NCBI GenBank assembly: GCA_016124415.1
Contig: WGNS01000004.1
Span: 3,926 to 67,925, forward strand
Length of the DNA: 64,000 nt
Direction: 5' to 3'
DNA from: Gammaproteobacteria bacterium
GTDB lineage: Bacteria > Pseudomonadota > Gammaproteobacteria > SZUA-140
Notes under the pieces: generated by a model
Told to the model about the DNA's origin: nothing
The model's database searches: none
What the model saw: the letters and a program-made list of their open reading frames with translations, nothing else
Made by a program: the position numbers and the translations under genes
Part shown: one piece after another, positions 42,442-60,779 of the stretch
How positions within the stretch are numbered: position 1 is the first letter of the stretch
Layout of the letters: every line of letters starts with the position of its first letter

Positions 42442-42494
42442 GCGGTCTCGATCGCATCGGAGTTGCACACACAAACCCCAAAAGGAATACCGAG

Positions 42495-43115
42495 ATGACC
42501 AAGAAGATATCGCGCGGGATACTGTTTTTAACGGTTTTGTTGGCCCCGATATTGACGCTGACGGCGTGCAGCAGCGTCAAGGTGTCCAGGGTGGACACGA
42601 ACCAGGAAATCGCGCTGACGGACCGTTGGAACGACAAGGACTCCGAACTGGTCGCCAACACGATGATCGAAGACATGCTGACCTTCCCCTGGCTGGGGCG
42701 TTTCCGGCAGGACTTTCCGGACCGCAGACCGACCATCACGATCCAGCAGATCCAGAACAAATCGCATGAGATGATCCCGGTCGACACCTTCGTCAACGAC
42801 CTCAAGCGCGCGATCATCCGCAGCAACAAGGCCGACTTCATCGTCAGCGGCGAGGAGCGCTCCCGCGTGCGCGAGGAGCTCAAGGAGCAGGATACCTTCG
42901 CCAGCCCCGAGACCCGTATGCAGATGGGCCAGGAGCAAGGCGCCAACTTCGCGCTGTCCGGCAGCATCAACTCCATCGTCGACCAGCTCGACGGCGAACG
43001 CGTGACCTTCTACCAAGTCGATCTCAAGCTCATCAATCTGCAAACCACGCGCGAGGTCTGGAACGGCCAGAAGAAGATCAAGAAGCTCATGGAACGCAGC
43101 CGCTTCGGGCTTTGA
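42495..43115 (+). CDS. LpoB/FlgO-like (COG3417) lipoprotein
   Basis: 206 aa. Lipobox LTLTACSS. The pattern TIQQIQNKSHEMI...LKRAII...FALSGSINSIVD...YQVDLKLINLQTTREVW resembles the LpoB/YcfM fold family. Confidence 0.5.
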   Translation: MTKKISRGILFLTVLLAPILTLTACSSVKVSRVDTNQEIALTDRWNDKDSELVANTMIEDMLTFPWLGRFRQDFPDRRPTITIQQIQNKSHEMIPVDTFVNDLKRAIIRSNKADFIVSGEERSRVREELKEQDTFASPETRMQMGQEQGANFALSGSINSIVDQLDGERVTFYQVDLKLINLQTTREVWNGQKKIKKLMERSRFGL

Positions 43116-44182: not shown

Positions 44183-46045
44183 GCGTTTCCACATGCCGAG
44201 GTAGGCAGCCTCGATGGCTCGAGCCATGCCCGCGGCATCGCAGAGTTCCGACTTCCGGACGCGCTCCCGAAGTGCCGCCCGCAGCGCCCGCCGCCGTTCG
44301 TCGTCCCCGGCAAGTCCGACCGCCAGATTCACGTAATCCTCCCGGGATTCCGCAATGCAGTCGGCAAGGCCTATGGCGCGAAGCATGCTGACGCCCTGGC
44401 GCTCGATCATGCGCGCCCCCGCCATCGTCACGACGGGCACACCCATCCAAAGCGCGTCGGCGGTCGTTGCGCCGCCCGTGCGCGGGAAAGGGTCGAGCGC
44501 GATGTCCATGTCGCCGTATTCCTTCAAATAATCCGGCGTCCGGGGCCGCAGAATCAGCCGCTCCGGATCGACGCCCAGCGCCGTGAAACGCTGCACGACG
44601 GCATGTCGACCGGCCTCGTGGTTGAAAGGCGCGGCCTTGAGCAGTAAGCGCGAACCGGGGACCCGGTTGAGGATCTCGGCCCAGGTCGCGACGACCTCGT
44701 CGCCGAGCTTGCTGAGGTCGTTGAAACAGCCGAACGTGACCGCTCCGCCTGAGGTCCTCTCGGCGACCTCGGGCGCGTCGGCGACGGGCTCGTAGGTGAT
44801 CCAGCAACGCGGCAGGCGCCAAATCTCCTCGGTAGTGCTTTCGACGCTGTCCTCGGGGACCAACGCCTCGTCGACCAGCCAGTAGTCCATCGCGGAAAGA
44901 CCCGTGGTGGCACAGTAACCGAGATACGTCACCTGCACCGGTGCCGGACGATAGGCGAAGACGCCTAGGCGGTTGCCGCGCGTATGTCCGGCGAGATCGA
45001 CGAGGATATCGATCCGGTCCTCGTAGATCTGCCGAGCGACCGCCTCGTCGCCCTGTCCTATCGTCTTCCGCCAGGCTTGGGCGTACGACCTGAGACGCCG
45101 GTTGACCTCATCATTGGAACGGCTTTCGTCATAGCAATAGACCTCAAAGCGGCTCCGATCATGCGCGCGCAACAGTCCCTCGACGAAAGTGCCGACCGGA
45201 TGGCGGCGCAGGTCCGGTGAGACGTAGCCGATCCTGAGCCGCCGGTCCCCGTCCAAGCGGCCGGAAAAATCGAATCGCCCGGCGCGCTCGTCGGGTGCAA
45301 AGCGTTGGGCCCACGCGCGGTGATGCTCGAGCAATTCCCCGGCTGGGCACAGGACGTGGTAAGCCTCGACAAACAACAAATTGCTGAAGGCCTCGCGGTA
45401 ATCCGGCCGCAGTTGCAACGCCTTGAGATTGCATGCCCTGGCCGTCGCGACCTGGCCGCTGTCCTTCATGACGTTGGCGAGCCCCACCCAGGTCTCGGCA
45501 TCGTTGGGATGGCGTTGTAGGATCGTTTGATAACAGGCCGCCGCCTCTTCGAAACGGAACGCCCGATGCAGCGCGATCGCGAGATTGAAGATCGTCGTGT
45601 CGTCGTCGGGATGGATCGCCAACACCGAGCGATAGCAGGCGATGGCCTCGTCGAAACGCTTGGTCCGGCGCAATAGGCCGCCCAGACGACTGCCGGCCTC
45701 CGGCCAGCCCGAGCGTAACGCAAGCGCCTGGCGATACGCATTCAAGGCGTCGTCGAGCCGATTCTGTCCCTCGTAGGCCATGCCCAGCAACAGATGCGCG
45801 TCGGCATTGCCGGGCTGTATGCCGAGCAGACGGACCAGGGGCGGTACGGCTCCGGCGAGATCGCCGGCGCGGCTGCAGGCCGCGCCCAGGAGATGCAATG
45901 CGACCGGCTGGTTTGGTGCCTTCTTCAGTACCTCGCGGCAGACCGTGATCGCCCGCTCGGCCGCGCCCGACTGCAACAAACGGCCGGCGTCGGCGACAAG
46001 CCGATCGACCTCCCCATTGGTCGAGCCGGGGCCCGGACTGCTCAT
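44165..46045 (-). CDS. TPR-repeat + GT41 (OGT/SPINDLY-like) glycosyltransferase, paralogue 1
   Basis: 626 aa with no signal peptide. The N-terminal ~230 aa is TPR. The C-terminal part reads RLRIGYVSPDLRRHPVG, DILVDLAGHTRGNRLGVFAYRPAPVQVTYLGYCATTG, TFGCFNDLSK, SRLLLKA and DIALDPFPRTGGATTADALWMGVPVVT. Its ATG overlaps the upstream stop (ATGA at 46042-46045). Confidence 0.8.
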   Translation of the reverse strand: MSSPGPGSTNGEVDRLVADAGRLLQSGAAERAITVCREVLKKAPNQPVALHLLGAACSRAGDLAGAVPPLVRLLGIQPGNADAHLLLGMAYEGQNRLDDALNAYRQALALRSGWPEAGSRLGGLLRRTKRFDEAIACYRSVLAIHPDDDTTIFNLAIALHRAFRFEEAAACYQTILQRHPNDAETWVGLANVMKDSGQVATARACNLKALQLRPDYREAFSNLLFVEAYHVLCPAGELLEHHRAWAQRFAPDERAGRFDFSGRLDGDRRLRIGYVSPDLRRHPVGTFVEGLLRAHDRSRFEVYCYDESRSNDEVNRRLRSYAQAWRKTIGQGDEAVARQIYEDRIDILVDLAGHTRGNRLGVFAYRPAPVQVTYLGYCATTGLSAMDYWLVDEALVPEDSVESTTEEIWRLPRCWITYEPVADAPEVAERTSGGAVTFGCFNDLSKLGDEVVATWAEILNRVPGSRLLLKAAPFNHEAGRHAVVQRFTALGVDPERLILRPRTPDYLKEYGDMDIALDPFPRTGGATTADALWMGVPVVTMAGARMIERQGVSMLRAIGLADCIAESREDYVNLAVGLAGDDERRRALRAALRERVRKSELCDAAGMARAIEAAYLGMWKRLEGAF

Positions 46046-47940
46046 CCGAACCTCTTTGCGACCATGGCCTCATAGGCGGTCTCCAGCCGCTCGGCGAGAT
46101 CCCGGCCGCGACACAGCGCGGAATCCCGGACCCGGTCGCGGAGCGTGCGCCGCAGTTCGGCGCGCCCAGTGGCATCCCCGGCGGCCCGTTCGACGCGGGC
46201 GACATAGGCCGCCCGGTCGGCGCAAATCCAGTCTTCGAGGCCCACGGCCGACAACATGGTCGCGCTCAGGCGTTCTATGTAGCGCGCACCGGCCAAAGTC
46301 ACGACAGGGACGCCCATCCAGAGCGCCTCCACCGTCGTCGTGCCGCCCGTCCGCGGGATCGTATCGAGGGCGATGTCGATTTCGCCATAAAGTTCGAGAT
46401 GGTCCCGTACGCTGTCCGTGCGACCCATGAAGCGTAAACGGTCGGCCGCGACCCCTTCTCGCTCGAAGGCCAGGGCAAGGTCGCGACGCACGTCCGGGTC
46501 CGAAAGCTGCCGCGCCTTCAGAAACAGGCTTGCCTCGGGCAAGGCCCGAAGGACGGCCGCCCAAAGTGCGACCGTCGCCGGCGAGACCTTGCTGAGATCG
46601 TTGAAACTGCCGAGTACCAGTCCCTTGTTCCCGGACCGATCCGCGACGTCCGGCGCGTCTCCGGGCGGGGTATATCCGAGACAGCACCCCGGCACGCGCC
46701 AGATCGCCTCCGAGGTGCGTTCGACGGTATCGGACGGGGTGAGTACGCCATCCGACAACCAATAGTCCATGGTCGGCAACCCCGTGGTCGTGAAGTAACC
46801 GAGATAGGTGATTTGCACGGGCGCGGGTCGGAAGCAGAAGATGCCGAGGCGGTTACCGGCCGTATGTCCGGCAAGATCGACCAGCACGTCGATGCCGTCG
46901 GCGTGAATCTGCCGGGCCACGGCCTCGTCGGACTGCCCGGCGGTCATGCGCCAAGCATCGGACAAATTGCGCAGGCGCTGGCTGACGGCATCGGGGCGCG
47001 GCAGTTCTGCGTAGCAGAAGATCTCGAAACGGGACCGGTCGTGATTGGCGAGAATGGGCTCGAAGAAATAGCTGACGGAATGCTGCCTGAGATCCGGCGA
47101 GACGTAACCGATGCGCAAACGCCGTCCGGACTCAGGCGCGCGATGTTCACCCGCCGCGCCATCCCGTTGCGCGCACCCGAAATGGCGGCTCCATTCGAGA
47201 TGCGCCTCGAGCATGGCTTCCGGGTCGAGCAACACATTGTAGCTCTGCAGAAACAGGATGTTGCTGTAGACCTGCATGAGATTGGGGTTCAGGCTCAGCG
47301 CCTTTCGGTAGTGCTCAATGGCGTGCCCGAAATCGCCCTTGGCCTCGTAGACCCGGGCGAGATTGTTTTGGATCGCGGCGACCTGGGGCGCGAGCTCTAC
47401 GGCCCGCTCGTAGACCTCTATCGCTTCCGCATATCGCCCCTGGGATTCGTAAAGATTGCCGAGGTTGTACCAGGTATTGGCCTGGGCGGGATCGAGCGCC
47501 AGCGCATGCCGAAACCGCCGTTCCGCTTCATCCTTTCGACCGACGTTGTGCAGCGCGGCCGCGAAGTTGTTCTGCAAAGAGGCGTCATCCGGCGTGATCG
47601 CGTCGGCCCGGCCGAAAGCCGCGATGGCATCATCGAAGCGTCCGGCGTCGGCCAGGGCCGTCGCCAGGCGTCCGAGGTAATGGGCGCTTTCCGGGGCTTT
47701 GGAAACCGCCTTTTGCATGAGTTGGATGGCCGGCTGAATGTGCCCGGTCTTGTGCGCGACGCAACCGAGCAGGAAATTGGCCTCGGCGTGCTCCGGATCC
47801 ACGGCGAGGGCCTGCCGGTAGCAGGCCTCGGCGGTCTTGAGATCGCCGGCCTTATGGGCCGCAATGCCCTGCTGCATGGCCTGATTCAAGGCGGGATGAT
47901 TCATGCCGCCCATCCCCGACGCGCGCCCAGGGAACGCCAT
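46042..47940 (-). CDS. TPR-repeat + GT41 (OGT/SPINDLY-like) glycosyltransferase, paralogue 2
   Basis: 632 aa. The conserved blocks match paralogue 1: RLRIGYVSPDLRQHSVS, DVLVDLAGHTAGNRLGIFCFRPAPVQITYLGYFTTTG, DIALDTIPRTGGTTTVEALWMGVPVVT. Confidence 0.8.
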   Translation of the reverse strand: MAFPGRASGMGGMNHPALNQAMQQGIAAHKAGDLKTAEACYRQALAVDPEHAEANFLLGCVAHKTGHIQPAIQLMQKAVSKAPESAHYLGRLATALADAGRFDDAIAAFGRADAITPDDASLQNNFAAALHNVGRKDEAERRFRHALALDPAQANTWYNLGNLYESQGRYAEAIEVYERAVELAPQVAAIQNNLARVYEAKGDFGHAIEHYRKALSLNPNLMQVYSNILFLQSYNVLLDPEAMLEAHLEWSRHFGCAQRDGAAGEHRAPESGRRLRIGYVSPDLRQHSVSYFFEPILANHDRSRFEIFCYAELPRPDAVSQRLRNLSDAWRMTAGQSDEAVARQIHADGIDVLVDLAGHTAGNRLGIFCFRPAPVQITYLGYFTTTGLPTMDYWLSDGVLTPSDTVERTSEAIWRVPGCCLGYTPPGDAPDVADRSGNKGLVLGSFNDLSKVSPATVALWAAVLRALPEASLFLKARQLSDPDVRRDLALAFEREGVAADRLRFMGRTDSVRDHLELYGEIDIALDTIPRTGGTTTVEALWMGVPVVTLAGARYIERLSATMLSAVGLEDWICADRAAYVARVERAAGDATGRAELRRTLRDRVRDSALCRGRDLAERLETAYEAMVAKRFG

Positions 47941-48010: not shown

Positions 48011-49741
48011 TCACTCGCCGCGAAGAAACGCCTGATACATGTCATTGAACCCTGCCTCGAGCATGCGCGCAACCCGCCGCCCGTCGCAAAAACCGGCGGC
48101 CTTCAGGCGCGCGCGCATGCCCGTGCGAAGTTCGCGCAGCGCCGTTCGGTCGCGGGCGAAGGCCGCGACCCGGTCGACATACGCGTTCTCGTCAGCCGTA
48201 ATACAATCGGTAAGCCCCATGCAATGCAACATGGAAGCGCTCAAACGCTCGACGTAGCGCTTGCCAGCCAACGTGACCACCGGAACGCCCATCCACAACG
48301 CCTCGGCCGTCGTGGTGCCGCCGGTCCTCGGGATCGTATCCAAGGCGACGTCGACGCCGCCGTACAGGGCGAGATGCGTGCGCGCGTCCGGCGTCCGGGT
48401 CAGCAGTTGCAAGCGGTTTGCCGTTATTCCCGAGCTTGCGAATGATGCGATGAAGTCCTCGCGCACCCCTTGGTCCGCGAACTGTTTGGCCTTGAGGACC
48501 AGACGCGCGTCAGGGACGGCCTGCATGACGCGCGCCCACAACGCCAGGGCTTCGTCCGAGACCTTGCTGAGATCGTTGAAACAACCCAGCGTGAAAGGCT
48601 CGCTCGGCGACCTGTCTGCGACCTCGGGGGCATCCGCCGCCGGCGCGTAACAAAAACTGCACCCGGGCAGCCGCCAGATCCGTTCGCTGCTCGGCTCGGC
48701 GGTATCGTCGGGAGACAGGACCGCATCCGAGAGCCAGTAGTCCATGGCGGAAAGACCGGTCGTCGTGAAATAGCCCAGATAGGTCGCCTGAACGGGCGCC
48801 GGACGATGGACGAAGACACCCAGGCGACCGTCGCGCGTATGACCGGCAAGATCGACGAGCACATCGATACCGTCTTCATGGATCCGACGGGCAACCTCGG
48901 CGTCGCTCAGATTCACGGTCTCCCGCCAATGATCGCTCAAACCCCGTAAACGCTCGGTGACGGCATCCGGCGCGCGCACCTCGGCGTAGCAATAGACTTC
49001 GACACGCTCGCGGTCGTGCGCGGCCAGGATGGGCTCCATGAAATAGGCCACGGAATGCTGCCGGAAATCCGGAGACACGTAGCCGATGCGCAACCGCTTA
49101 GGTAAGGCTCGCGAACGCGAATGGTGATACGGCGCGACCCCGTGAACGGTTTTGTACCGCGCCTCCCAGTCCCGATGCAGTGCCAGCGATTCCTCGGGCG
49201 TAGTGAGGACATGATAGCTCTGCAGCGCGAGATAGGCGCTCATGATCTGTAGCGCCGCGTCCTCGCGCTGCGGGACCAGGTGGATCAGGCGGTTGTCCGG
49301 ATCGCTGGGACAAGCCAGGCCCCGCCGCAGACATTCCGCTGCATCTTTCCACCGCCGGCTGCGGCCATAGAGATTGCCTAGATTCGTATAGGCTTCCGCG
49401 AAATCAGGCCGGATCTCGAGCGCCCGGCGATAGGCTGCCACGGCCTCGCCGGAGCGGCTCAGGATGGCGGCGACCTTGCCGAGGTTATAGAGCGCGTAAG
49501 GATGGTCCGGTTGCGCCGCGAGCGCCTCCCTGAAACAAGCCTCCGCGTCCGGCAAGCGTCCCAAGCGGCCGTTGATCATGCCGGCGAGACAGATCAAATC
49601 TCCATCAAGCGGGTTTTCGGCCAGCGCCGTTGCGCACCCGTTCAGGGCGCCGGCGAAATCGCCGCGATCGACGTGTGCGATGATCGCGGCGAGGCGGGTC
49701 GGCGTCCCGCTCACGGCAACGGTTCGTCCAGGGCCCGGCAC
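48011..49741 (-). CDS. TPR-repeat + GT41 (OGT/SPINDLY-like) glycosyltransferase, paralogue 3
   Basis: 576 aa with the same conserved blocks: RLRIGYVSPDFRQHSVA, DVLVDLAGHTRDGRLGVFVHRPAPVQATYLGYFTTTG, DVALDTIPRTGGTTTAEALWMGVPVVT. An alternative in-frame GTG at 49714 would form a GTGA overlap with the upstream stop. Confidence 0.8.
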   Translation of the reverse strand: MPGPGRTVAVSGTPTRLAAIIAHVDRGDFAGALNGCATALAENPLDGDLICLAGMINGRLGRLPDAEACFREALAAQPDHPYALYNLGKVAAILSRSGEAVAAYRRALEIRPDFAEAYTNLGNLYGRSRRWKDAAECLRRGLACPSDPDNRLIHLVPQREDAALQIMSAYLALQSYHVLTTPEESLALHRDWEARYKTVHGVAPYHHSRSRALPKRLRIGYVSPDFRQHSVAYFMEPILAAHDRERVEVYCYAEVRAPDAVTERLRGLSDHWRETVNLSDAEVARRIHEDGIDVLVDLAGHTRDGRLGVFVHRPAPVQATYLGYFTTTGLSAMDYWLSDAVLSPDDTAEPSSERIWRLPGCSFCYAPAADAPEVADRSPSEPFTLGCFNDLSKVSDEALALWARVMQAVPDARLVLKAKQFADQGVREDFIASFASSGITANRLQLLTRTPDARTHLALYGGVDVALDTIPRTGGTTTAEALWMGVPVVTLAGKRYVERLSASMLHCMGLTDCITADENAYVDRVAAFARDRTALRELRTGMRARLKAAGFCDGRRVARMLEAGFNDMYQAFLRGE

Positions 49742-51282
49742 ATCTCTCCAAGCTGGTGCTCATAGTGCCGCCAATGGCCGAAGCCCTTATCGTTGAGCGG
49801 CTGCCTGACCTGGGTCGTGCTGGCCGTCTTGGCGACGCGGCCGCTCTCGTGAAAACGCAGACACGCATCCGACCAATCGAGTTCGCAGAATTCCAGGAGG
49901 CGCCGCGTTTGCGTCTCCTGGTCGTCGATCAGCGCGCGATGTTCGAAATCCAGGACGAACCCCGGCAGTACCTCGTGCCAATGCTTCATATAGGCGTCGA
50001 AGATGCGGTAGAAACGTCCGACCTCGTACTGATCGTTGGCGAAATAGCCGATGGCGGGGAAGTACTGCATCCAGATGGAGAAGCAGGTGTCCATCGGTTC
50101 GCGCCGGCAGCAAATCACCTTGGCGTTGGGGAACAGCAAACGAATGACGCCGACGTAGATGAAGTTGAACAGTTCCTTGTCGGTCGTACGCGGTAATCCA
50201 TCCCGGTTATAGATCTTCATCCGATCGACGTACTCCGTGGCCAGACCGACCGCGGCACCCGCATCGATCCGCTCCGCAAGTTCGGGAAAACGGCCTACGG
50301 AGCAGATCGTGCGCCAGAGATCCGGGACTTCGCCCGCGGCGATCACGTCGGGATGACTCGACAAAATTTGTTCGACGAGCGTCGAACCCGAGCGCGGCAT
50401 GCCGACGATGAAGATCGGGCGTTCCCGCGACAGGCCGTACCCGCTCCGTTGCGCGAAGAAATCCTTCGTGAACACCGCGCGGGCTTTGTTCAGAGTCTCG
50501 ATGTCGTCTTTGATGTCGTAATGATAGTCGGCGCGGCGCAAACGGTTCGCTTCGCGAAAATGCGCGAAGGCCGCCTCGTATTCCCCGAGATCGTCGTGCA
50601 CCTTGCCGAGCGCGAAATGCAGGTGCATGGCCTTGACGGGAGACAGTTTGGGATCGCCGAGGTGCCGCTCCATGATCCCGGCGTCGCTCTCCTCGCGCGT
50701 ACGATATCGCCGCAACTGGGTCATGAGCCGATAGACCTCGACGCGATCGGGCTGAAGCTTAAGGACATGGGCATAGGCCTCGGCCGCGCCCTCCATGTCG
50801 CCCTTCATCTTGAGTACCAGGCCGAGGTGCGACCAGGCGTCCGCATAATCCGGCCTGGCCTCGATGGCCTTCCGGTACGACGCGATCGCGTCATCCACAC
50901 GGCCGCAACCCATGAGCACGTTGCCGATGTTGTCGTAGGGCTCGGGGGCATCGGGCAAACGCTCGGAAACGCGGCGATAACTCGCCATCGCCTCCTCCCA
51001 GCGCCCCCGTGACTCCAGAGCGACGCCGCGCGCGAACTCATAGTTCGGATTCGCGGGCGCGAGCGCCGTCGCGCGATCGAGCAGCTTCAGCGCATCGTCG
51101 ACACGACCGACGGCCGAAGCGATCGAAGCCAGCCTGAATATCGCTTCCGGGTGGTCGGGCGCGAGCCTCAGGGCGTTACGGAAGGCGGCCTCCGCCTCCG
51201 CGAGTTTGCCCGCTTGTTTGAAGCCCTCCCCTTGCTGAAGGAGGGTGCGGACTTGGGCTTCACGCGTATTCAATGAGTTCAT
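49711..51282 (-). CDS. TPR-repeat + sulfotransferase fusion protein
   Basis: 523 aa with no signal peptide. The N-terminal ~200 aa is TPR. The C-terminal domain has the 5'-PSB loop IFIVGMPRSGSTLVEQILSSHP and later VICCRREPMDTCFS (3'-PB-like). Confidence 0.8.
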   Translation of the reverse strand: MNSLNTREAQVRTLLQQGEGFKQAGKLAEAEAAFRNALRLAPDHPEAIFRLASIASAVGRVDDALKLLDRATALAPANPNYEFARGVALESRGRWEEAMASYRRVSERLPDAPEPYDNIGNVLMGCGRVDDAIASYRKAIEARPDYADAWSHLGLVLKMKGDMEGAAEAYAHVLKLQPDRVEVYRLMTQLRRYRTREESDAGIMERHLGDPKLSPVKAMHLHFALGKVHDDLGEYEAAFAHFREANRLRRADYHYDIKDDIETLNKARAVFTKDFFAQRSGYGLSRERPIFIVGMPRSGSTLVEQILSSHPDVIAAGEVPDLWRTICSVGRFPELAERIDAGAAVGLATEYVDRMKIYNRDGLPRTTDKELFNFIYVGVIRLLFPNAKVICCRREPMDTCFSIWMQYFPAIGYFANDQYEVGRFYRIFDAYMKHWHEVLPGFVLDFEHRALIDDQETQTRRLLEFCELDWSDACLRFHESGRVAKTASTTQVRQPLNDKGFGHWRHYEHQLGEMCRALDEPLP

Positions 51283-51397: not shown

Positions 51398-54300
51398 TCA
51401 GAAACGGAAGTTCATGCTCATGTTCAACGAGCGCGTATCGAAGGCACCCAAGGCAAGACTCTGGAACGCGATGCGGGTGCCGGACGGCGAATAGACGATA
51501 CCCACGGGAAGATTCGCCCTGGTCTTGCTTTGCGAGTAGACAAGAGAAAGCGACAAATTGTCAGCAAGCTGATAGCTCAAATTCGCAGACAACGCGTCAT
51601 TGAGAATTCGCCGCTTTGCCGCCGTACCCAGGGCGAAGAAGGCGTTCGTATCGTTGTATTCGTGATCGGTTTGCTGATGGCTGATCGAGAAGGCGCCGGT
51701 GAGCTTGGGCACGCCCGGGACCGAGCGGTTATAACTCAGGTTCACGCGCTGCGAGTGGCTCGCGTAGTCCGTACCCAACGGTTCTTCGTTGAATTTCTTC
51801 GAATAGGTGTAACCCAGCGTGACCGTACCCCAGGTAACGCTCGGCATCGACAGCGAGAACGTCAGGCTCGCGTCCCTTGTCTGCGCCAGATACGACTGCA
51901 CCGGGAACGACTTGCCCATCGAAAGGCTCGTCGAAAAGGTCTTGGTACTGGCGACGCTCTCCTCAGGGGCGCCGGTCAGGAAGGCGAACCGGTCCTCCTC
52001 AAGCTTTTGCAGCTTCTCCTTGGCCAGACGCGCCACCCGGCTGTCCCCGCCTTGCGTCACGACCTGTTCGAGCTGGGTCATGCCCTTGTCGAGACTGCGC
52101 AGAGCGATATTGAGATCGCCCAGCATCCACAACGCCGTGAGGTTCTCGGGATGCGATTCCATCATGGCCTCGAGGACGCCCTTGGCCTTGGCGCCGTCGT
52201 TCAAACGACGATAAGCCAACGCCAGATTCAGACTGATCAGCGGATCGTCGCTCAAGACGTCATGCGCCTGTTCCAGCAGATCCTTGGCCTTATCGAAGTC
52301 CTCATCGGCCAGGAGTTCCAGGATCGTGAAGAACTTCAGATGCCTCAGCGCACGCAGATGGAACCAGTGATCATCCGACAAAGACATCAATGACCGCAGG
52401 GATGCCCGGTACTTTTCGTCGCCCGCCTCCTTGGGTTTCGCCTCGATCAGGCGCCAAGAGATGTATTTGTCCTGAGGCCTCAGCGTTCCCGCCTTGCGGT
52501 AGTGTTCCAGCGCCTGCTCGTTTTGACCGAGCAGCATCTCCATGTCCGCGAGCTGGATCAGCGTCGCGGGATCGTCGGGATGGGCCTGGAGATAGGAATC
52601 GAGTTCCTGTTTGCGCTTCTCGCGATCCTCCTTATCCAAATCGTCCGGTTTGACGGCGAACGGGAGCTGCTCGATCGCGTATATACGCTGCGCTTCGTCG
52701 CCGCCGTGCTCGACGACCCAGGCGTAGGCCTCATCCGCATCGTCAAGCTTACCCTCAGCGAGGTAGGCGTCGCCCAGCGCACGATGGGCAAGCGCATTGT
52801 TCTTGTCGATGTCGACGGCGCCTTCCAGATAATTCTCCGCGGCGCCGTATCGTCCCGATGCAAGGGCAAAGCGACCCGCCCACAGGTGAGCGTCGAAGTC
52901 ACGGCTATCCTTGTCCGTCCTCTGCTCAAGCAGCGGCAAGGTGTCGGCATAGGCCTCCAAGTCGTAGAGTTTGCCGATCAGTACGTAGAACTGGACAAGG
53001 TCCTCCTTGGTCATCGCCTTCTCCTGAATCCGGGTGGCGTCCGCCAGGTAGCCCATGCGCAGGCGCCTCCCGCCAAGTTCATGAAGCGCATCCGCCGATC
53101 CCGTCGCCCGATAGACGGCGTCAAGCCAATTCACCGCTTCGGTTTCCTTCTCCGCCTGATACAGGCGGCCCAGCGAATATTTGGCCCAGAGGTCCGATGA
53201 ATCTCTTTCCAGCAGCCCCAAATAGATGGCGGTCGCGTCGGCAGGATGTCCCAGTTTTTCCGCCAGCCATCCGCGCAACAGCAGGGACAAATGGTACCCG
53301 CCGACGCCGTGAGGATCTTCCTTCAGGCGCCGAAGCGCGGTGTCCGGATGGCCGTGCGTAAGATCGGCCAGCACATGCAGCAGGAAAGTCCTGACATCCC
53401 GGACTGAGCTGCCTGCGGGCAGGTCGGTCATCGGCACGTTGGTCAGGTAGTCCTTGAGCCTGTCTTCTTCCCTGGTCTCGAGAGAAATATTCTCCGGTGC
53501 GACCCTGTCCTCGCTGAGGAAATAATCCGGCAGCGGATCTTCGGAGAAATCGAACAGGCTCAGGAACTCCGAGAACGGGTGGTTGAATCGCAATCCGTTG
53601 GAAACGGTCGCATTGGCCGAAGCGCCGCCGAACTGATCCAGCAGCAAACCGTAGCTTTCCGTATAGCCGGCGCTCAGTCCCCAGAAGCTCTTGGGATTGT
53701 TCACGTTCGCGTTGATGCTGATGTTCGGCGCGATACTGTCGTTCTGGGTGCTGTGGTTGGACGAGTGCGTCAAACCCGTCACGATCGCGATATTCGTTTT
53801 CTCCGACGGATGGAACGTCGTCGTCAAACGATAGTTGAACGAGGAGCTGAACGAGGTATTAACCGCGCCGGTGTTGTTGACGTCCTGCTCCTGGATGACG
53901 GACTTTCCCGAGATCAGCGTATAGCCGAGGTTCGACGTGAAGCGTCGCTCCTTGTCCTCGAGATAGCGTTTCCGTTGCCGGGCCGCCTCCACGTAGCGGT
54001 CACCCGCCTTGCCTCGCTTGAGGATCTCCCTCAATTGCGCGATCGCGGCCGCGGTGGCGTTGGTCTGTTCATAGAGCCCGGCCAGACTGAAATGCATGCT
54101 GAGGTCGTCGGGGCTGATGCCGATACCTTCGCGGTAGACCTCGATGGCCTGATCGTAATCGCCCTGCTGACTCTCGAGGAAGCCCAACATACTCTGGATG
54201 CGGCCGTCCTTGAAACCGAGGCTGCGCAAGCGTTCGAGATAACGGATCGCGAGAATGGGCTGGTCTTCCTCATAGAATTTTCTCGCCATCGTGAACAGCA

Positions 54301-57300
54301 GGTCCTTGACGACCGCCATCGCCTTGTCGGGATCCTCCTGGAGCGATATCTCCCGCGAATAAGCGGTGACCGCGTCCATGGCCTTGCTGTCCTGGGCGTA
54401 GGTCACTGCAAGTTGATGATAGACCGAAGGGTCGTCCGGCATCAGACGGGCCGCCTCCTGCAGCGACGTGATGGCCTGCTCGTATTCACCGCTAAACGCG
54501 TAGAACAAGCCCAACTGAAGGAACGCGCGGCCGTTGTCCGGATTCTCGCGCGCGAACTTCTTCAACACCATGGCGGCTTCGTCATACTTTTTGGCCTGCG
54601 CCAGGGCGCCGACGCGGGCGCGATAGAGATCCGCGAGTTCCTTGACGACCTGTTTGGTGTACTTGCCCTTCCGGTTGGTGTTGAGATAATCCTCCAGCGT
54701 CGAAATCGCCTGATCGTTACGTTTGGTCTGCAGGTAAAGGCGGGACAGGCGCCACAAAGCCTCGCCGTTCGCGGGTTCGACCGCGAGGATCGAATGCAGC
54801 GTCTTCTCGAGGTTGGCCAGGTCGTTGGTTTTCTGGTAGATCTCGGCGATGCGCTCCAGGATCATCGGATTGTCCGGAACGATTTTCAAAAGCTGGTCGT
54901 AAGCATCCAAGGCCTTGGGCCAATCCTGTTTGGTCTGCAACTCCACGGCCTTGTCGAATCCGATCAGCGTCAAGGCGGCCAGTGCCTCTGGTCCGGAAGG
55001 TTGGATGGCCAGAATGGCCTTGACGTGAGTAAGCGTCTGCTCATCCTTGCCCTTTTCGTGATAGAGCTGCGCCATGCGCAGACGGATGCGAACGTTATTG
55101 GGCTCCAGGGCCACCAATCGCTCGAATACCCGATCGGCTTCCGCGGACCGTCCCAGCGCCAGGAGGGCCTTGCCTTCGAGCCCCAGCAGCTGGACGTCCT
55201 TGGGCATCCGTTTCAACAGGCCGTCGTAGATTTTGAGCGCCTCGGCGATGTGGCCTTCGCTGTCCAGGACCCGGGCACGGGTCACCAACATGCGCTCCCG
55301 GGCCTTGTCGTGGGTCGGACCGGAGGGAAGCAACGTCGTGACTCGGTGGTAGGCCGCCTCCGCCTTCTTCATATCGCCGGAGGACTCGTAGACCTCCGCA
55401 AGGTTCATGAGCAGCATGCCGTTTCCGGCCGACAGTTCGGCGCTCTGTTCGATCGCCTCGATACCCTTTGCACGATCGCCCATCTTGAGTTCCGCCTGTC
55501 CCAACCAGTAAAAGGCCTGGGCATTGCGGCCGTGCTTCAGCAAGGCCTCGGAAATCTCCTTGACGTGCCCGTAGTAAAGACGCAGGTACAAGTCCTTGAT
55601 GAGGTCCAATGCGGACGCCTCCAACTGAGGCGTCAACGACGCGGTCGACGTCAAATTGGACACCATGGCCGCACTCTGGGCGCCGAATATCTTGCCCAAA
55701 CTATCGATCGCCCGCTTCGAATACGGATCGGTGGGGCCTTTCCTGGCCACGATCTCCAGCTCCTTGATGGCGGCATCCACGCGCCCTTCGTCGGCCAGGA
55801 GCGTGCCCAGGGCAAACCGCGCCTCGGAAAGATTGCCGTCCATCTCGACGACGCGGCTGTACTCCTTCTTGGCGAGGTCGATCCGCTTTGTTCCGACGAA
55901 AATCCGGGCCTGACGCAGCAGGACCTCCGGCGCATTCGGCACCAGCCGAACCAATGCCGTCACCTGATCGCCGGCTTCCTGCCATTGCGACTGCTGGATC
56001 AGCCGGTCGACGTCGTAGACTCCGAGTCCGGCCAGCGCCTGTTTTCTCAGGCTCGGGATCTTGGCCGCGTTCAGGACCCGGGCGTAGTTTTCCCGGGCAT
56101 GTTCCTCGTCGCCCTGGTCGTGATAGAGCTCCGCCAACGCGAGGGCCACGGCCGCCGAAGAGGAATCCTCGCGCAGGATGTCCTCATAGACCGTAGCGGC
56201 GAGCGTTTCGCTCTTGGCCTCGCGATAGGCATCCGCGAGCACGAGTTGGATATCGGTATTGCCGGGATGCTCCACGAGCGCCTGCTTGAGCAGTACGACG
56301 GCATCGGTAGGCCGCTTGAGTCCGATCAGGGCGCGCCCCATCATCCGATACGGCGTAATCAGGTCGGGGCGTCCGGCGATGATCCGTTCCGCGACAGTCC
56401 GGACCGATTGATACAGCTCGTCGTCCAGCATCCGCTGCAAAAGCGGGAACAGTTGTCCCTGTCCCTCGTCCCCAAGCTTATCGATGCCTTGGTCTTCAAG
56501 GATCTTGTTCGCCTCGCGCTCCTGAATCTCGGCGAGGATGGTCTTGGCCTGGTCCTTCCACTTCTTGGCGACCATCATGCTGGTGACGAGGCGCGCCTCG
56601 TTGATCGCCGCCTCGTCGTTCTCCGCCTTTTGATAGGCACGCGCAAGCTGAATATGATAATCGGCCTTGTCCGGCGCCTCGTGGATTGCGGTCCGATACG
56701 CGGCGATGGCCGCATCGTAGTTTTCGAGCGCCATATAGACGCGTGCGATCTCCTCGTTCGCGACCGGCTCGCTGGGCACGATCTTGAGCACCTTGCCGTA
56801 TTCGATCAGGGCTTCCTGATATTTTTTCTCCTTGAAGTAATTACGCCCCGCCTCCATGCCCATGCGGTCCAGGGCTTTCGTACGAATCTCATCGGGCGCG
56901 CCCTGCTCTAGCAGTATCCTTGCCTCGTCGTCCGCCTTGTCTCGCTGTCCGAGTTTTTCGTAAACCGTCACGAGTAGGCTGCGTGAGTCGAAGTCGAAAG
57001 GCTGTTTGTCCAGCAGCTTGTTCAGGATTTCCGATGCCTTGTCGAGCTTGCCCGCTTCGACGTACGCGTTGGCCAAGGCCGGCACGAGCAGGAGATTTTC
57101 CGGCGCCAAGGCCAGGCTCTTTTCGAGCGCCGCGACCTCGTTGTCGAAAGACTTTCTCGCCTTGTAGACCTGAGCCAGCCAATAGTGCCCCGGGGCCTGG
57201 TCCGGGTCGATTCTCAGCAAACCTTCGAACATGGTCTGCGCCTCGTCCAACTCGCCGTTGTCGAGATGCTTTCTTCCCTGGGTGACCATTTCCTTCTTGA

Positions 57301-59776
57301 TATCGTTCAGAAATTTCTCGCCGTTCTTCCGGTCGTTATCGCCCAGCGTCCCGGTCTTGAGGATTTCCTTGACCTGCTCCGCGGCGTCGACAAACCGGCC
57401 TTCCTTCTTAAACAGGTCGGCCAGCGCAAGATGGACCGACAGGTTCTGCGGCTGAAGCCTCAACAACTGTTTATAGAGCGGTTCCGCCTTGTCGTATTGC
57501 TTGTCGTTGTAATAGATCGAGGCCAGTTTCAGGCGCAGGATGACGTTCTGCGGCGACAAGGCGATGACTTTCTCGAGCAATGCGGTCGCCTCATCCTTGT
57601 GCCCGGAAGACAGCAATGCCTCGCTTTGAAGCGTCAACACGCGCTCCTCATTCGGATAGCGTTTGCCCAGGTCTTCGAGCGCCTTCAACGCCTCTTCGGG
57701 CTTGGATGCGATCAAAAATCTTTGCGCCTGAACCAGATGCAGACGTTTGTCCGCCTCTTCCCTGGCGATCTTGTCGGTCACGGTGTCCAGCGCCTTTTTG
57801 TAGGCGTCCTCAGCGTCGGCCCATTGACCGGCGTCCTCGTGCAGCTTACCGATGGACAGGAACAGGCGGCCGTTGTCCGGGGCAAGCGCTACGCTCTTCT
57901 CCAGATTGGCCAGGCCCTTGGCGCGGTCGCCGGAATTGATCTCCGTCTGACCGAGCCAGTAGAAGGCACGCGGGTCGGGGAATTTTTGAGACAAGGGCTT
58001 CAGGATCTGTTGCGCCGAGGCGACCATGCCGACTGCGATGAGTTTTTGGGCGAGATCGACCGCGCCGTCCACGTCCTCGGCACTGAATCCGTTCTCCTTC
58101 GAAATGGCTTCCGCGATCGTCTCGGCGCGCTTCTGATAGTACGTCTTGAGCAGGTCCGCCGCGGCCCTGGCCTCCGGCACGTCCTTGCCCAGGCGGGCCA
58201 GATTTTCCAGCTCCGGCACGGCCTTGTCGTCCTTGCCCACGACCAGTTGGGCTTCCGCCCTTCTGAGGAGGGCATCCGTGCGCCCGGGCGCCAGCTTCAG
58301 GATCTCGTCGTAAACCTTGATCGCGCGATCGTCCAATCCCAGCTTGCTGTAGATCTTCGCCCTGCGCATCATGATGTCGGGGTTGTGCGGCAGCGCCTTG
58401 TCGATCTCGAAGAAGATCTTGTTGGCCGCCTTGTAGTCGCCCTTCAGGATCAGTTCGTCACCGGCGCGCAATCCCAATCCGTCGAGCGCGAGCTGCCGAA
58501 GCTGCGGGTCATCCGTGAGCTTGTATGCCTCGACGAAGGCCTCCCGCATCTGTGCCTCATCGCCCCGGATGCGGTAGACCTCTGCGAGGCGCAGTCTCAA
58601 TCCGGCATCTTCGGGCAGGAGTTTGCGCAGACGGGCGTATACCTGATCCGCCTCGGCGGCGTGATTCAACCGTTCCAGGGCGCGCGCATAGAGTTCGAGC
58701 AGTCCCGGATCGTCGGGGGTCTTCTTCAAAAGATCCTGATATCGCTGAAGCGCGGACGCGACGTCGCCCTTCAAGACCTCCTTGCGGGCGACGATCAGTT
58801 GCAGGCGGCGCTCCGTCTCGACGATCGTCACGGCCGGCGTGCCTCTCGTTTCCAGGACTTTGCGGTACTCGACTTCCGCATTCTCGAAACGTCCCAAAGC
58901 TTCATAGGCCTTGGCGAGTTCGAGGCGCAGGATCGGATTCTCCGGCGCCAGCGAAACGCTTCGCTCGATGGCGCTGATACCCTTGCCTTCCTGCTTCTTG
59001 GAGAGGTAGATGCGGCCCAACCAATAGTAAGGTTGAGGATTGTCCTGCGTCTGCTCGAGCACACGTTCGAAGAGGCGCTGCGCCTCATCGAGCATATTGG
59101 CGCGGACCAACTTCTGGCCGAGCACGACGGCCGGGTCGACAAGCTTCGGGTCCTTCGGCAGACCGTCGTACAAGGCCGTGGATTTCTGATGATAGACGTC
59201 GCGCAGGCGGGAAGTGATTTCGGCCGAGATCAGCGAACTCCCGGCCAGCCTGCCGGCCTCCTCGAGTTCCGGGATGGCTGCGTCCAGGCTACCCTGATCA
59301 GCCGCGAGGTTGCCCAGTGCCAGATGCGGATCGAGATAGTTCGGGTTCAACGCGATCGAGCGCTGATAGTCGGACTTGGCCTGATCGAATTCCTGCCTGA
59401 CCTGGTGGATCCGTCCCCGCCAATAGACCGCGACCGCGTCGTTAGACCACTTATCGTCGGAGATCAGATCCCAAGCGCCCTGATAGTTGCCGGTGCCGAA
59501 GAAGTGACTGACTCTATCAAAGACGGATCCGGCGCGCTGAGTTGTAACCGGCGCGGCGGCATCACCCGACGTCTTGACTGCATCGGCCGCGTGCGCCGCA
59601 CAGCCGAAGGTCGCGAGCAATACGAATACGGAAGTGGACCGCCGGCCGGTCAACGGGGCAAACGTCCCACGGGGTTTGATAGGTCCTGTATCGCTCAAAG
59701 AAACGCCTTCACAGATAGATGGATCAGAGGCACGGGTGTTCCCAACGACCCATGGCCGCCGAAGCCGACAAATCAT
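51398..59776 (-). CDS. Giant (up to 2792 aa) exported TPR-repeat protein with one internal and one C-terminal outer-membrane-type beta-rich block
   Basis: One uninterrupted ORF. A Sec-type signal (RRSTSVFVLLATFGCAAHA-ADA) begins about 40 codons in, so the real start may be the in-frame TTG at 59653. TPR repeats fill roughly residues 90-1940 and 2080-2600. Beta-rich S/T/N/G/Y blocks lie at about 53573-53944 and 51401-51950. The protein ends ...SLNMSMNFRF, an OMP-like terminal Phe. Confidence 0.75.
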   Translation of the reverse strand: MICRLRRPWVVGNTRASDPSICEGVSLSDTGPIKPRGTFAPLTGRRSTSVFVLLATFGCAAHAADAVKTSGDAAAPVTTQRAGSVFDRVSHFFGTGNYQGAWDLISDDKWSNDAVAVYWRGRIHQVRQEFDQAKSDYQRSIALNPNYLDPHLALGNLAADQGSLDAAIPELEEAGRLAGSSLISAEITSRLRDVYHQKSTALYDGLPKDPKLVDPAVVLGQKLVRANMLDEAQRLFERVLEQTQDNPQPYYWLGRIYLSKKQEGKGISAIERSVSLAPENPILRLELAKAYEALGRFENAEVEYRKVLETRGTPAVTIVETERRLQLIVARKEVLKGDVASALQRYQDLLKKTPDDPGLLELYARALERLNHAAEADQVYARLRKLLPEDAGLRLRLAEVYRIRGDEAQMREAFVEAYKLTDDPQLRQLALDGLGLRAGDELILKGDYKAANKIFFEIDKALPHNPDIMMRRAKIYSKLGLDDRAIKVYDEILKLAPGRTDALLRRAEAQLVVGKDDKAVPELENLARLGKDVPEARAAADLLKTYYQKRAETIAEAISKENGFSAEDVDGAVDLAQKLIAVGMVASAQQILKPLSQKFPDPRAFYWLGQTEINSGDRAKGLANLEKSVALAPDNGRLFLSIGKLHEDAGQWADAEDAYKKALDTVTDKIAREEADKRLHLVQAQRFLIASKPEEALKALEDLGKRYPNEERVLTLQSEALLSSGHKDEATALLEKVIALSPQNVILRLKLASIYYNDKQYDKAEPLYKQLLRLQPQNLSVHLALADLFKKEGRFVDAAEQVKEILKTGTLGDNDRKNGEKFLNDIKKEMVTQGRKHLDNGELDEAQTMFEGLLRIDPDQAPGHYWLAQVYKARKSFDNEVAALEKSLALAPENLLLVPALANAYVEAGKLDKASEILNKLLDKQPFDFDSRSLLVTVYEKLGQRDKADDEARILLEQGAPDEIRTKALDRMGMEAGRNYFKEKKYQEALIEYGKVLKIVPSEPVANEEIARVYMALENYDAAIAAYRTAIHEAPDKADYHIQLARAYQKAENDEAAINEARLVTSMMVAKKWKDQAKTILAEIQEREANKILEDQGIDKLGDEGQGQLFPLLQRMLDDELYQSVRTVAERIIAGRPDLITPYRMMGRALIGLKRPTDAVVLLKQALVEHPGNTDIQLVLADAYREAKSETLAATVYEDILREDSSSAAVALALAELYHDQGDEEHARENYARVLNAAKIPSLRKQALAGLGVYDVDRLIQQSQWQEAGDQVTALVRLVPNAPEVLLRQARIFVGTKRIDLAKKEYSRVVEMDGNLSEARFALGTLLADEGRVDAAIKELEIVARKGPTDPYSKRAIDSLGKIFGAQSAAMVSNLTSTASLTPQLEASALDLIKDLYLRLYYGHVKEISEALLKHGRNAQAFYWLGQAELKMGDRAKGIEAIEQSAELSAGNGMLLMNLAEVYESSGDMKKAEAAYHRVTTLLPSGPTHDKARERMLVTRARVLDSEGHIAEALKIYDGLLKRMPKDVQLLGLEGKALLALGRSAEADRVFERLVALEPNNVRIRLRMAQLYHEKGKDEQTLTHVKAILAIQPSGPEALAALTLIGFDKAVELQTKQDWPKALDAYDQLLKIVPDNPMILERIAEIYQKTNDLANLEKTLHSILAVEPANGEALWRLSRLYLQTKRNDQAISTLEDYLNTNRKGKYTKQVVKELADLYRARVGALAQAKKYDEAAMVLKKFARENPDNGRAFLQLGLFYAFSGEYEQAITSLQEAARLMPDDPSVYHQLAVTYAQDSKAMDAVTAYSREISLQEDPDKAMAVVKDLLFTMARKFYEEDQPILAIRYLERLRSLGFKDGRIQSMLGFLESQQGDYDQAIEVYREGIGISPDDLSMHFSLAGLYEQTNATAAAIAQLREILKRGKAGDRYVEAARQRKRYLEDKERRFTSNLGYTLISGKSVIQEQDVNNTGAVNTSFSSSFNYRLTTTFHPSEKTNIAIVTGLTHSSNHSTQNDSIAPNISINANVNNPKSFWGLSAGYTESYGLLLDQFGGASANATVSNGLRFNHPFSEFLSLFDFSEDPLPDYFLSEDRVAPENISLETREEDRLKDYLTNVPMTDLPAGSSVRDVRTFLLHVLADLTHGHPDTALRRLKEDPHGVGGYHLSLLLRGWLAEKLGHPADATAIYLGLLERDSSDLWAKYSLGRLYQAEKETEAVNWLDAVYRATGSADALHELGGRRLRMGYLADATRIQEKAMTKEDLVQFYVLIGKLYDLEAYADTLPLLEQRTDKDSRDFDAHLWAGRFALASGRYGAAENYLEGAVDIDKNNALAHRALGDAYLAEGKLDDADEAYAWVVEHGGDEAQRIYAIEQLPFAVKPDDLDKEDREKRKQELDSYLQAHPDDPATLIQLADMEMLLGQNEQALEHYRKAGTLRPQDKYISWRLIEAKPKEAGDEKYRASLRSLMSLSDDHWFHLRALRHLKFFTILELLADEDFDKAKDLLEQAHDVLSDDPLISLNLALAYRRLNDGAKAKGVLEAMMESHPENLTALWMLGDLNIALRSLDKGMTQLEQVVTQGGDSRVARLAKEKLQKLEEDRFAFLTGAPEESVASTKTFSTSLSMGKSFPVQSYLAQTRDASLTFSLSMPSVTWGTVTLGYTYSKKFNEEPLGTDYASHSQRVNLSYNRSVPGVPKLTGAFSISHQQTDHEYNDTNAFFALGTAAKRRILNDALSANLSYQLADNLSLSLVYSQSKTRANLPVGIVYSPSGTRIAFQSLALGAFDTRSLNMSMNFRF

Positions 59777-59933
59777 ACCCCATCCAGCTTAATCGCCGAT
59801 GAATGCGACGGGATCCGTCGACACGCGTTCTTTCCGCCCGTTTTTGCGCGAACGGGGCTCCGAATGCACCGGTCCTTGAACGCTTGTGCTTATTTTGAAA
59901 ATTCGACAGGGTCTCGTAATACAAGTTCATGGC

Positions 59934-60779
59934 TTAAGTGATCGTTAATGATTGGCTACCTACCCGGCAATACCCCGCGCAAGGCTGTTGAACACAACGG
60001 CCCTCTTCGTCCAGCTCCAGCGCCGTGAGACTTCCGCCCCAGATGCAGCCCGTATCGATCGCCTCGATACCCGTGCCCGAGTAGCGCCCCAACGTGGACC
60101 AGTGCCCGAATACGATGCGCGAATCGACTGCCACCCGTCCCGGCACCGAGAACCAGGGCACAAGCCCGTCCTCGCGTCCGAACGGCGCCCCTTTCTCGGT
60201 CAGGCGAAGGCGTCCTTCGGCATCGCACATGCGCATTCGCGTAAAGGCGTTGATGATATAGCGCAGACGCTCCTCCCCGGCGAGATCCGCCGCCCAAAGG
60301 TCCGGCCCGTCACCGTACATGTCCGTCAGCAGGCGGGCATAATCGTCCGACCGAAGGACTTGCTCGACCTCGCGCGCGCAGGCGACGGCCGTCTTGAGAT
60401 CCCAAAACGGCGACATCCCCGCATGCACGAGCGTGCACCCCAGGGCCTCGTCATGATGCAGCAGCGGGAGGTTCCTGAGCCAATCGATCAGTTCGGGACC
60501 GTCCTCCTCACGGAGTACATCGGCACAGTTGTCGGATTGCTTGGCTTTCCGGGCGCCGGAAGCGATCGCCAGCAGGTGTAGATCGTGATTGCCGAGCACG
60601 ACCACGGCGCGGTCGCCGAGGCCGCGGACGAACCGAAGCACCTCCGCGGATTGCGGCCCCCGGTTGACGAGATCGCCGACGAACCACAGGCGGTCGTCAT
60701 CGGAAAAGCCGATTTGGCCGAGAAGCGCCTGGAGTTCGGGCAAGGCGCCCTGGACGTCGCCTATGGCCCAGGTCGACAC
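59934..60779 (-). CDS. apaH: Bis(5'-nucleosyl)-tetraphosphatase, symmetrical
   Basis: 281 aa with metallophosphatase motifs WAIGDVQG, VGDLVNRGP and LGNHDLHLL. Confidence 0.9.
   Translation of the reverse strand: MSTWAIGDVQGALPELQALLGQIGFSDDDRLWFVGDLVNRGPQSAEVLRFVRGLGDRAVVVLGNHDLHLLAIASGARKAKQSDNCADVLREEDGPELIDWLRNLPLLHHDEALGCTLVHAGMSPFWDLKTAVACAREVEQVLRSDDYARLLTDMYGDGPDLWAADLAGEERLRYIINAFTRMRMCDAEGRLRLTEKGAPFGREDGLVPWFSVPGRVAVDSRIVFGHWSTLGRYSGTGIEAIDTGCIWGGSLTALELDEEGRCVQQPCAGYCRVGSQSLTIT

Follow-up and report, generated by a model that had tools for sequence, protein, structure and literature searches.

A giant gammaproteobacterial TPR protein with a predicted 14-stranded outer-membrane barrel split by a periplasmic insert

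The window studied here is a 64,000-nucleotide stretch of DNA from an uncultured gammaproteobacterium (GTDB lineage SZUA-140; GenBank assembly GCA_016124415.1, contig WGNS01000004.1, positions 3,926 to 67,925), and positions below are counted from its first letter. Our subject is one very large gene on its minus strand, at 51398-59776, which encodes without interruption a protein of 2792 amino acids (aa) and has its stop codon at 51398-51400; we call its product the giant. An earlier note, made from the sequence alone, read this protein as a signal peptide, a long tetratricopeptide repeat (TPR) region, a beta block, a second TPR region, a second beta block and a terminal phenylalanine, and that layout is borne out by sequence, Pfam and NCBIfam matches, composition and AlphaFold. 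The note left two alternatives for the beta blocks: a single barrel interrupted by a ~520-aa TPR insert or, as its title had it, two outer-membrane (OM) anchors brought together by gene fusion.

The annotated ATG gives the giant an implausibly long N-terminus. The true start is likely the TTG at 59698, which follows a Shine-Dalgarno sequence (GAAGG, 59710-59706) and would give a protein of 2766 aa. Starting there leads to a normal signal peptide ending in FGCAAHA (59588-59698, minus strand, residues 27-63, by reading the sequence), with a basic n-region containing RR, the core VFVLLATF and cleavage between AHA and AD. Cys59, in the ATFGC of this peptide (59600-59610), could alternatively belong to a lipobox, in which case the N-terminus of the giant would be tethered to a membrane as well; at the same position the relative P0001 has TMFS-C, and the relative P0002 has no Cys. 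Two antisense open reading frames (ORFs) within the gene, at 53579-56911 (plus strand, 1110 aa) and 57185-59941 (plus strand, 918 aa), are not genes but shadow ORFs of this G+C-rich, repetitive gene. The G+C content of the giant gene is about 0.60, compared with 0.64-0.65 in the neighbouring genes; along the window it rises from 0.52-0.55 in the first 22 kb, where the polysaccharide genes lie, to 0.60-0.65 over the final 28 kb (36000-64000).

From about residue 97 to residue 1943 (53948-59488, minus strand) the protein is predicted to form a periplasmic solenoid of roughly 50-55 TPR-like repeats, in which [FY]YWLG super-repeat motifs recur at residues 250, 605 and 1422. Pfam and NCBIfam find only TPR-type families in the whole protein, also inside the second TPR region; on the solenoid, a TPR model of about three repeats matches 19 times. 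In 50-aa windows the composition is helical and rich in A, E, L, K and R up to about residue 1943, the S/T/N/G/Y fraction reaches 0.50 in residues 1951-2050, helical composition is back in residues 2101-2600, and the S/T/N/G/Y fraction is 0.36-0.46 in residues 2601-2792. The first block, which we call barrel half 1 (beta1-beta6; 53585-53941, minus strand, residues 1946-2064), is modelled by AlphaFold with a predicted local distance difference test score (pLDDT) mostly of 85-95 and matches our family hidden Markov model (HMM) for block 1, b1, at E=6e-33. The second block, barrel half 2 (beta7-beta14; 51401-51943, minus strand, residues 2612-2792), is modelled as eight strands and a small hairpin, matches the corresponding HMM, b2, at E=2.5e-53, carries the loop motifs GTDYA (51761-51775) and NLPVG (51500-51514), and ends in NMSMNFRF. 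The insert between beta6 and beta7 (51944-53584, minus strand, residues 2065-2611), delimited by AlphaFold and TPR matches in Pfam, consists of a short disordered linker, about 25 helices (about 12 TPR-like repeats) and a final long helix that runs into beta7; it totals about 545 aa, and the gap between the two block models in this protein is 570 aa.

These limits lie close to the block coordinates of the earlier note, which had allowed about 8-12 strands per block where AlphaFold gives 6 and 8. Its suggestion that an aromatic, beta-signal-like motif closes block 1 has to be given up: the RF at this point is merely the end of strand 6, and the aromatic is not conserved, since relatives have R-L there. 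The terminal F that it pointed out is, by comparison, common to most family members, as is a GxxFxF ending. It also counted six N-x-S/T triplets in each block, correctly, and cautioned that they may only reflect the composition of outer-membrane proteins (OMPs), which was right. Against composition-preserving shuffles, the six in block 1 compare with 3.9 expected (P=0.15) and the six in block 2 with 2.5 (P=0.018, uncorrected), and with enrichment this weak or absent we do not propose N-glycosylation of the barrel.

What do the two blocks form? The AlphaFold2 model of residues 1925-2792 (alignment A1, 26 sequences; mean pLDDT 83) shows, in order, a helix, six long strands, a disordered linker, about 25 helices (to residue 2600), and eight long strands with a hairpin (2612-2791). 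Such prediction in pieces was one of the checks that the earlier note had asked for, and it resolves block 1 into six long strands and block 2 into eight. The predicted TM-score (pTM) of this model is low, 0.47, as expected, because the orientation of the solenoid relative to the barrel is left free. Because TPR matches dominated a Foldseek search with the full C-terminal model, we turned to P0044, a barrel-dominated relative in which the blocks are not split (alignment A3). The AlphaFold model of P0044 has a pLDDT of 87.5, a pTM of 0.76 and 14 strands in the same order, strands 6 and 7 being joined by 14 residues. In a Foldseek search of the PDB with this model, OM barrels make up the best 50 of 347 matches (E<=0.001) throughout; the best TM-scores are those of OmpG (0.67, root-mean-square deviation 5.5) and CymA (0.62), both 14-stranded, the best E-value is that of FadL (1e-9), and PelB stands at rank 21. 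OmpG, CymA and FadL, 14-stranded barrels of known structure, are the best structural matches of the family barrel, but at 7-11% identity, with no TPR and no common motifs, the likeness is one of fold class only.

One could instead take the blocks for soluble periplasmic beta-sandwich domains, given that they have no significant match to any curated OMP family: Pfam and NCBIfam contain no family that either block matches, and a search of the PDB by sequence profile returned BamA only (E=0.0035). We consider this very improbable. The Foldseek matches of the unsplit relative are OM barrels, such weak sequence matches as exist go only to Omp85, Porin_4 and BamA, and the C-terminal aromatic, the alternating hydrophobics and the even strand number are what a membrane barrel would have.

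Relatives of the giant carry much of the argument. Exact look-ups of the giant and of the MetH encoded in the window gave no record, and word-indexed protein searches with the 863-aa C-terminal region, with alignment A1 and with block 2 alone returned no relatives. The family came to light in an exhaustive HMMER search in which residues 1930-2792 were compared with 1.84 billion representative proteins. All family counts given here rest on mapping b1 and b2 on 150 listed hits of that search. Two full-length relatives are P0001 (2775 aa, 70% identical over its full length; locus L001, from an uncultured gammaproteobacterial metagenome-assembled genome) and P0002 (2765 aa, 38% identical). Fourteen further proteins match the C-terminal region and are mostly of 2350-2900 aa; P0013 and P0015 are shorter, apparently truncated. 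Numerous shorter proteins, roughly 300-1800 aa long and including some fragments, match the two beta blocks as well. Both blocks occur, in constant order, in 47 proteins, 46 of which were taken into the later analyses. In 29 of these (~300-1800 aa) the gap between the block models is only 26-51 residues, so that both blocks lie in a single uninterrupted C-terminal domain of about 310 aa; the other 17 are giants, the window protein among them, and have gaps of 300-680 residues in three size classes. The insertion point is identical in alignment A1, after an R[FL]xxP that ends a strand and before strand 7, at a place where a turn of 8-16 residues joins the two strands in unsplit relatives.

When the barrel halves were concatenated and a neighbour-joining tree was built from them, the 17 split proteins all fell into a single clade surrounded by unsplit ones, and in this clade the window protein groups with P0001 and P0002. 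A single nested clade implies that the split is derived and arose once, with insert length changing later. On this sequence evidence the unsplit barrel is the ancestral state of the family, and the insertion was acquired once, in the clade of giants of 2350-2900 aa. The recurrence of the split also bears on whether the ORF might be an assembly chimera or a pseudogene, a notion for which we found nothing in favour and which we regard as negligible: the 8.4-kb frame is intact, and synteny is kept at L001 and at L079, a second closely related locus. The earlier note had worried in particular about an assembly join at the split, and this is ruled out by 16 other proteins with the same split architecture from independent assemblies (NCBI, JGI, ENA and Logan).

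Because the blocks are contiguous in relatives and six strands are unable to close a barrel of their own, the two blocks are best seen as halves of one 14-stranded barrel. We therefore consider it highly probable, from the models and the sequence comparisons, that the giant has a single barrel of 6 + 8 strands, split after strand 6 by an insert of about 545 aa that is mostly TPR. This is the first of the two alternatives in the earlier note, which gains comparative as well as structural support. The second, a fusion of two TPR-plus-anchor modules in which each block would be a small OM barrel or anchor of its own, fares poorly, and we rate it as very unlikely. It draws some appeal from the fact that each block is preceded by a TPR region and a long helix, and from a model of the segment before block 1 that scores 24-62 bits on the segment before block 2. 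That score, however, is one that ordinary TPR segments also attain, and the match stops short of the model's junction columns. The same was seen when we asked whether the insert arose by tandem duplication of a unit of TPR and junction helix: the model of the segment before strand 1 does match that before strand 7, though no better than it matches many ordinary TPR segments. Blocks 1 and 2 show no similarity to each other (blastp E=0.1) and so do not look paralogous, block 1 has only six strands, the blocks are contiguous in 29 relatives, where they make one 14-strand barrel, and the split state is derived and monophyletic.

The topology that follows from a single barrel is simple. The N-terminal TPR region is exported, hence periplasmic, and strand 1 begins within two residues of it, so even-numbered strands should end in the periplasm and the insert should occupy periplasmic turn 3. 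The insert is accordingly predicted to be periplasmic. Both TPR arms would then lie on the periplasmic face, and no large domain would have to cross the membrane when the barrel is folded by the beta-barrel assembly machinery (BAM). LysM, a peptidoglycan-binding module, lends independent support to a periplasmic insert, as it is found in the inserts of P0003 (locus L080, Pfam 5e-8) and P0005 (locus L084, 2e-5), near the start of the insert and in giants with the longest inserts. No LysM was found in the insert of the window protein, where Pfam returned only TPR-type matches.

Conservation within the barrel is highest in the predicted extracellular loops L3, L5 (GTDYA) and L7 (NLPVG...Q-S), and in barrel half 2 the residues D2670, D2709 and R2722 are invariant. 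Such conservation is unusual for porin loops, and it suggests that L3, L5 and L7 may fold into or over the pore. The window protein has both halves in order, the GTDYA, DTNA and NLPVG loop motifs and a terminal aromatic, which places it in the family at large. Its TPR insert after strand 6 and its total length fall within the ranges of the split giants (300-680 aa and 2350-2900 aa), and its glycosyltransferase family 41 (GT41) and sulfotransferase neighbours likewise place it among them. The giant therefore belongs to an uncurated family of TPR proteins with a 14-strand barrel, for which Pfam and NCBIfam have no model. When genome contigs were scanned, L001 was the one true orthologue recovered, and the 77 other loci were generic TPR loci that lack the barrel.

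How does this family compare with known TPR-and-barrel proteins? BcsC, PgaA and PelB are alike in their Sec export, in a long periplasmic TPR region (residues ~100-1940 of the window protein) and in a single C-terminal OM barrel. Their barrel has 16 strands, whereas that of the giant has 14 and is interrupted by a TPR arm, and the TPR region of the giant is 3-5 times longer than theirs. When the barrel profile was compared by hhalign with the E. coli PgaA and BcsC barrels, the probabilities were 0.2% and 0.1%, and the NCBIfam models for BcsC and PgaA match far below cut-off and through TPR only (NF008520, 109 bits versus 858; TIGR03939, 124 versus 367). The earlier note had said that the protein is not a simple copy of these polysaccharide porins, and with 14 strands, no family-model match and hhalign probabilities of 0.1-0.2% we agree. 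The loops may offer a parallel. In PelB, BcsC and PgaA, polysaccharide porins of 16-18 strands, extracellular loops fold over or into the pore (bioRxiv 10.1101/2024.09.23.614597), and the predicted loops in the family of the giant, which are better conserved than the rest of the barrel, may do likewise.

The interrupted barrel itself recalls the PapC and FimD ushers, in which a plug domain is inserted between barrel strands 6 and 7 (PMC4356140). In both cases the insert sits in the strand 6-7 connection, and the ushers are a precedent for BAM assembling a barrel whose sequence is interrupted. They are unrelated to the giant in sequence, however, and have 24 strands and an Ig-like plug of ~75 aa in the lumen, where the giant has 14 strands and an insert of ~545 aa that is too large for the lumen.

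The genes around the giant offer the main clue to what it might do. Directly downstream, 115 bp away and on the same strand, lies a gene for a cytoplasmic 523-aa protein with TPRs and a sulfotransferase domain (49711-51282, minus strand; Pfam Sulfotransfer_3, 7e-37), followed by three genes for cytoplasmic proteins with TPRs and an OGT-like GT41 glycosyltransferase domain (48011-49741, 46042-47940 and 44165-46045, all minus strand; Pfam Glyco_transf_41, 1e-48 to 4e-54). The three GT41 genes are tandem paralogues with catalytic domains 53-62% identical, and no signal peptide was found on any of the four enzymes. Two junctions in this run overlap, by 31 and 4 bases, suggesting that translation of the genes is coupled, and the other spacing is tight. 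The 115-bp gap between giant and sulfotransferase holds no terminator-like site, in a promoter and terminator scan that did not rise above shuffled expectation. To judge from this arrangement, the giant, the TPR-sulfotransferase and the three TPR-GT41 genes are apparently co-transcribed. Upstream on the same strand are housekeeping genes, for MetH, Dtd and a metallophosphoesterase, in an order kept in the close relatives L001 and L079.

Related enzymes recur beside other split-barrel giants. At L079 an orthologue of the TPR-sulfotransferase follows the giant gene. At L084, where the giant (P0005) is only ~25% identical to that of the window, genes for a TPR-GT41, a TPR-sulfotransferase and a second TPR-GT41 follow directly downstream, and their catalytic domains share 50-57% identity with those of the window; L086 (P0009) has a TPR-GT41 gene downstream of the giant, and L093 (P0014) a TPR-sulfotransferase gene 3.7 kb downstream. 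At L083 (P0002), L094 (P0012) and L080 (P0003) the adjoining gene encodes TPRs 32-35% identical to the TPR part of the enzymes and ends at the contig edge. Outside the close relatives, the giants with such neighbours share no more than 25-40% identity with the window protein. GT41 and sulfotransferase domains were found at none of the 77 generic TPR loci (1.42 Mb), at none of four distinct loci of unsplit relatives (six loci, two of them duplicates) and nowhere else in the window. That split-barrel giants repeatedly adjoin TPR-GT41 and TPR-sulfotransferase genes is a new finding of this work.

The unsplit relatives have other neighbours, among them a DUF1302 OM protein, a DUF1329 protein, a secreted protein of ~300 aa encoded directly upstream, and multi-copy secreted proteins. 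This cluster of DUF1302, DUF1329 and secreted-protein genes recurs at loci of unsplit relatives and of some giants (L087, L091, L095, L089, L080, L081, L085 and L093), and the neighbours of unsplit relatives are in part also found beside the giants at L080, L081, L085 and L093; they may be partners or cargo of the family. The DUF1302 protein is 46-59% identical between loci. Many of the multi-copy secreted proteins, which are 310-390 aa long, have Cys-Pro-x-Gly-x-x-Cys near the N-terminus, and L085 has seven copies in tandem.

Taking architecture and neighbourhood together, we see the giant as one Sec-exported OM protein in which a periplasmic TPR solenoid of ~1850 aa is followed by a single 14-stranded barrel, which would act as an OM anchor or pore. 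The two TPR arms might then serve as a docking platform in the periplasm, and the TPR-sulfotransferase and the three TPR-GT41 enzymes would belong to the pathway that docks there. In the most likely version, the product of this pathway would be glycosylated and/or sulfated and would be exported or assembled on the cell surface. In another version the giant itself would be the substrate, modified in the cytoplasm before Sec export; adhesins with dedicated cytoplasmic glycosyltransferases, such as HMW1 with HMW1C and AIDA with Aah, are known. We hold the functional part of this account, with the barrel as anchor or pore and the TPRs as docking platform of a pathway for glycosylation or sulfation, only tentatively. 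For the explanation as a whole, architecture, family and function combined, our estimate is roughly 70%.

Several points weigh against this explanation. For the window protein, closure of the barrel (pairing of beta1 with beta14 and of beta6 with beta7) is judged from strand counts, model confidence and the model of the unsplit relative, and the AlphaFold models were built on shallow alignments of 24-26 sequences. The link to function is drawn from gene neighbourhood only, and three of the linked loci (L083, L094 and L080) show just the truncated TPR gene; L085 and L081 have no such enzyme in the DNA available. The types of neighbour seen beside unsplit relatives (DUF1302, DUF1329, multi-copy secreted proteins) are absent from the window. 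Finally, all the linked enzymes are cytoplasmic, and beside the giant gene there is neither an inner-membrane synthase nor a transporter, in contrast to BcsC, PgaA and PelB, which belong to operons with such a synthase and periplasmic polymer-modifying enzymes; no deacetylase or glycosidase gene adjoins the giant gene either, its downstream neighbours being the TPR-sulfotransferase and TPR-GT41 genes.

It is also conceivable that the barrel is an anchor without any transport role, and that the giant is an envelope scaffold whose TPR arms tie the OM to peptidoglycan or periplasmic partners. LysM in the inserts of some relatives would fit such a scaffold, as would the very large TPR mass relative to the barrel and the lack of an adjacent synthase or transporter gene. 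Yet the most conserved features of the barrel are the predicted loops L3, L5 and L7 and invariant charged residues, for which a passive anchor has no need, the insert of the window protein lacks LysM, and the linkage to the enzymes would be left unexplained; we think a pure scaffold unlikely, if worth keeping in mind.

Another model makes the giant a translocon in the manner of Slam and the type XI secretion system (TXISS), moving proteins, possibly glycosylated or sulfated, to the cell surface. TPR-fused GT41 enzymes such as OGT typically modify proteins, and relatives of the giant adjoin multi-copy secreted proteins (the seven tandem copies at L085 included) that could be cargo. The gross plan is also the same: DUF560 proteins of this class combine periplasmic TPRs with a 14-stranded barrel (PMC8406197), and so does the giant by AlphaFold strand counts. 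The TPR region is ~140 aa in Slam and TXISS proteins and ~1850 aa in the giant, however, and the barrel of the giant is split. Barrel-only sequences of the window protein and three relatives gave no match to PF04575 (DUF560) at E<=10, and the window has neither an adjacent lipoprotein cargo gene nor a candidate cargo gene of the families seen beside relatives. We hold a translocon of this kind to be slightly less plausible than the scaffold.

A broader reading, which we offer as no more than an improbable but attractive guess, is that the giants, together with TPR-GT41, TPR-sulfotransferase and in some loci a methyltransferase, constitute an undescribed envelope system, in which a protein, possibly the giant itself, would be glycosylated and sulfated in the cytoplasm with the help of the OGT-like enzymes and then displayed or exported by the two-armed TPR barrel. 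Two observations on methyltransferases may be recorded here. At L084 a PKMT-like methyltransferase gene (4391-6043; PF10119, PF21782) lies directly upstream of the giant P0005, and at L091 two TPR-methyltransferase fusions (11800-16003) lie downstream of the unsplit relative P0047.

Why should such a protein matter? Several pathways for biofilm polysaccharides and for surface proteins have a TPR-plus-barrel protein as their exit through the OM, and to these proteins is now added a distinct family with no Pfam or NCBIfam model. Our literature search found nothing specific on such a family or on a system of GT41, sulfotransferase and TPR proteins. In the split giants, nature would offer a clear example of an OM barrel sequence that accommodates a large insertion (~545 aa), which bears on how BAM folds strands that are distant in sequence. 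To our knowledge, most bacterial TPR-GT41 enzymes have no known substrate, and the linkage to GT41 and sulfotransferase genes gives a testable handle on their function. If it proved to define a new system of modification and export, its importance would be high; cytoplasmic modification followed by display, if true, would be a bacterial counterpart of adhesin-type glycosylation tied to a new class of 14-strand translocon. The host is an uncultured gammaproteobacterium, and any function found would be new biology and not the refinement of a model system.

Two further parts of the window deserve mention. Convergent with the GT41 genes, three consecutive genes on the plus strand (40768-44182) encode lipoproteins with lipobox-like N-termini: one of 557 aa with weak TPR matches, an LpoB-like one of 206 aa (PF13036), and one of 356 aa that matches no family. 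About 20 kb from the giant gene, and with no evident link to it, the core of an XrtA/PEP-CTERM exopolysaccharide (EPS) system occupies 16303-31115. The presence of this locus in the same window, the TPR-rich sequence of the giant and its summed TIGR02917 score of 471 bits, above the cut-off, might suggest that the giant is itself PrsT. We reject this assignment: the score is a sum over nine partial repeat matches, the best of which covers model positions 309-639 of 899, and PrsT is a lipoprotein of ~900 aa without a barrel, whereas the giant has one. A genuine PrsT, of 933 aa and with 690 bits to TIGR02917 in one stretch, is encoded at 23145-25946 within the EPS locus, alongside the EPS priming transferase (16303-17709), an XrtA-EpsI fusion (25943-27496), PrsR (27644-28996), PrsK (29025-31115), WecB and glycosyltransferases.

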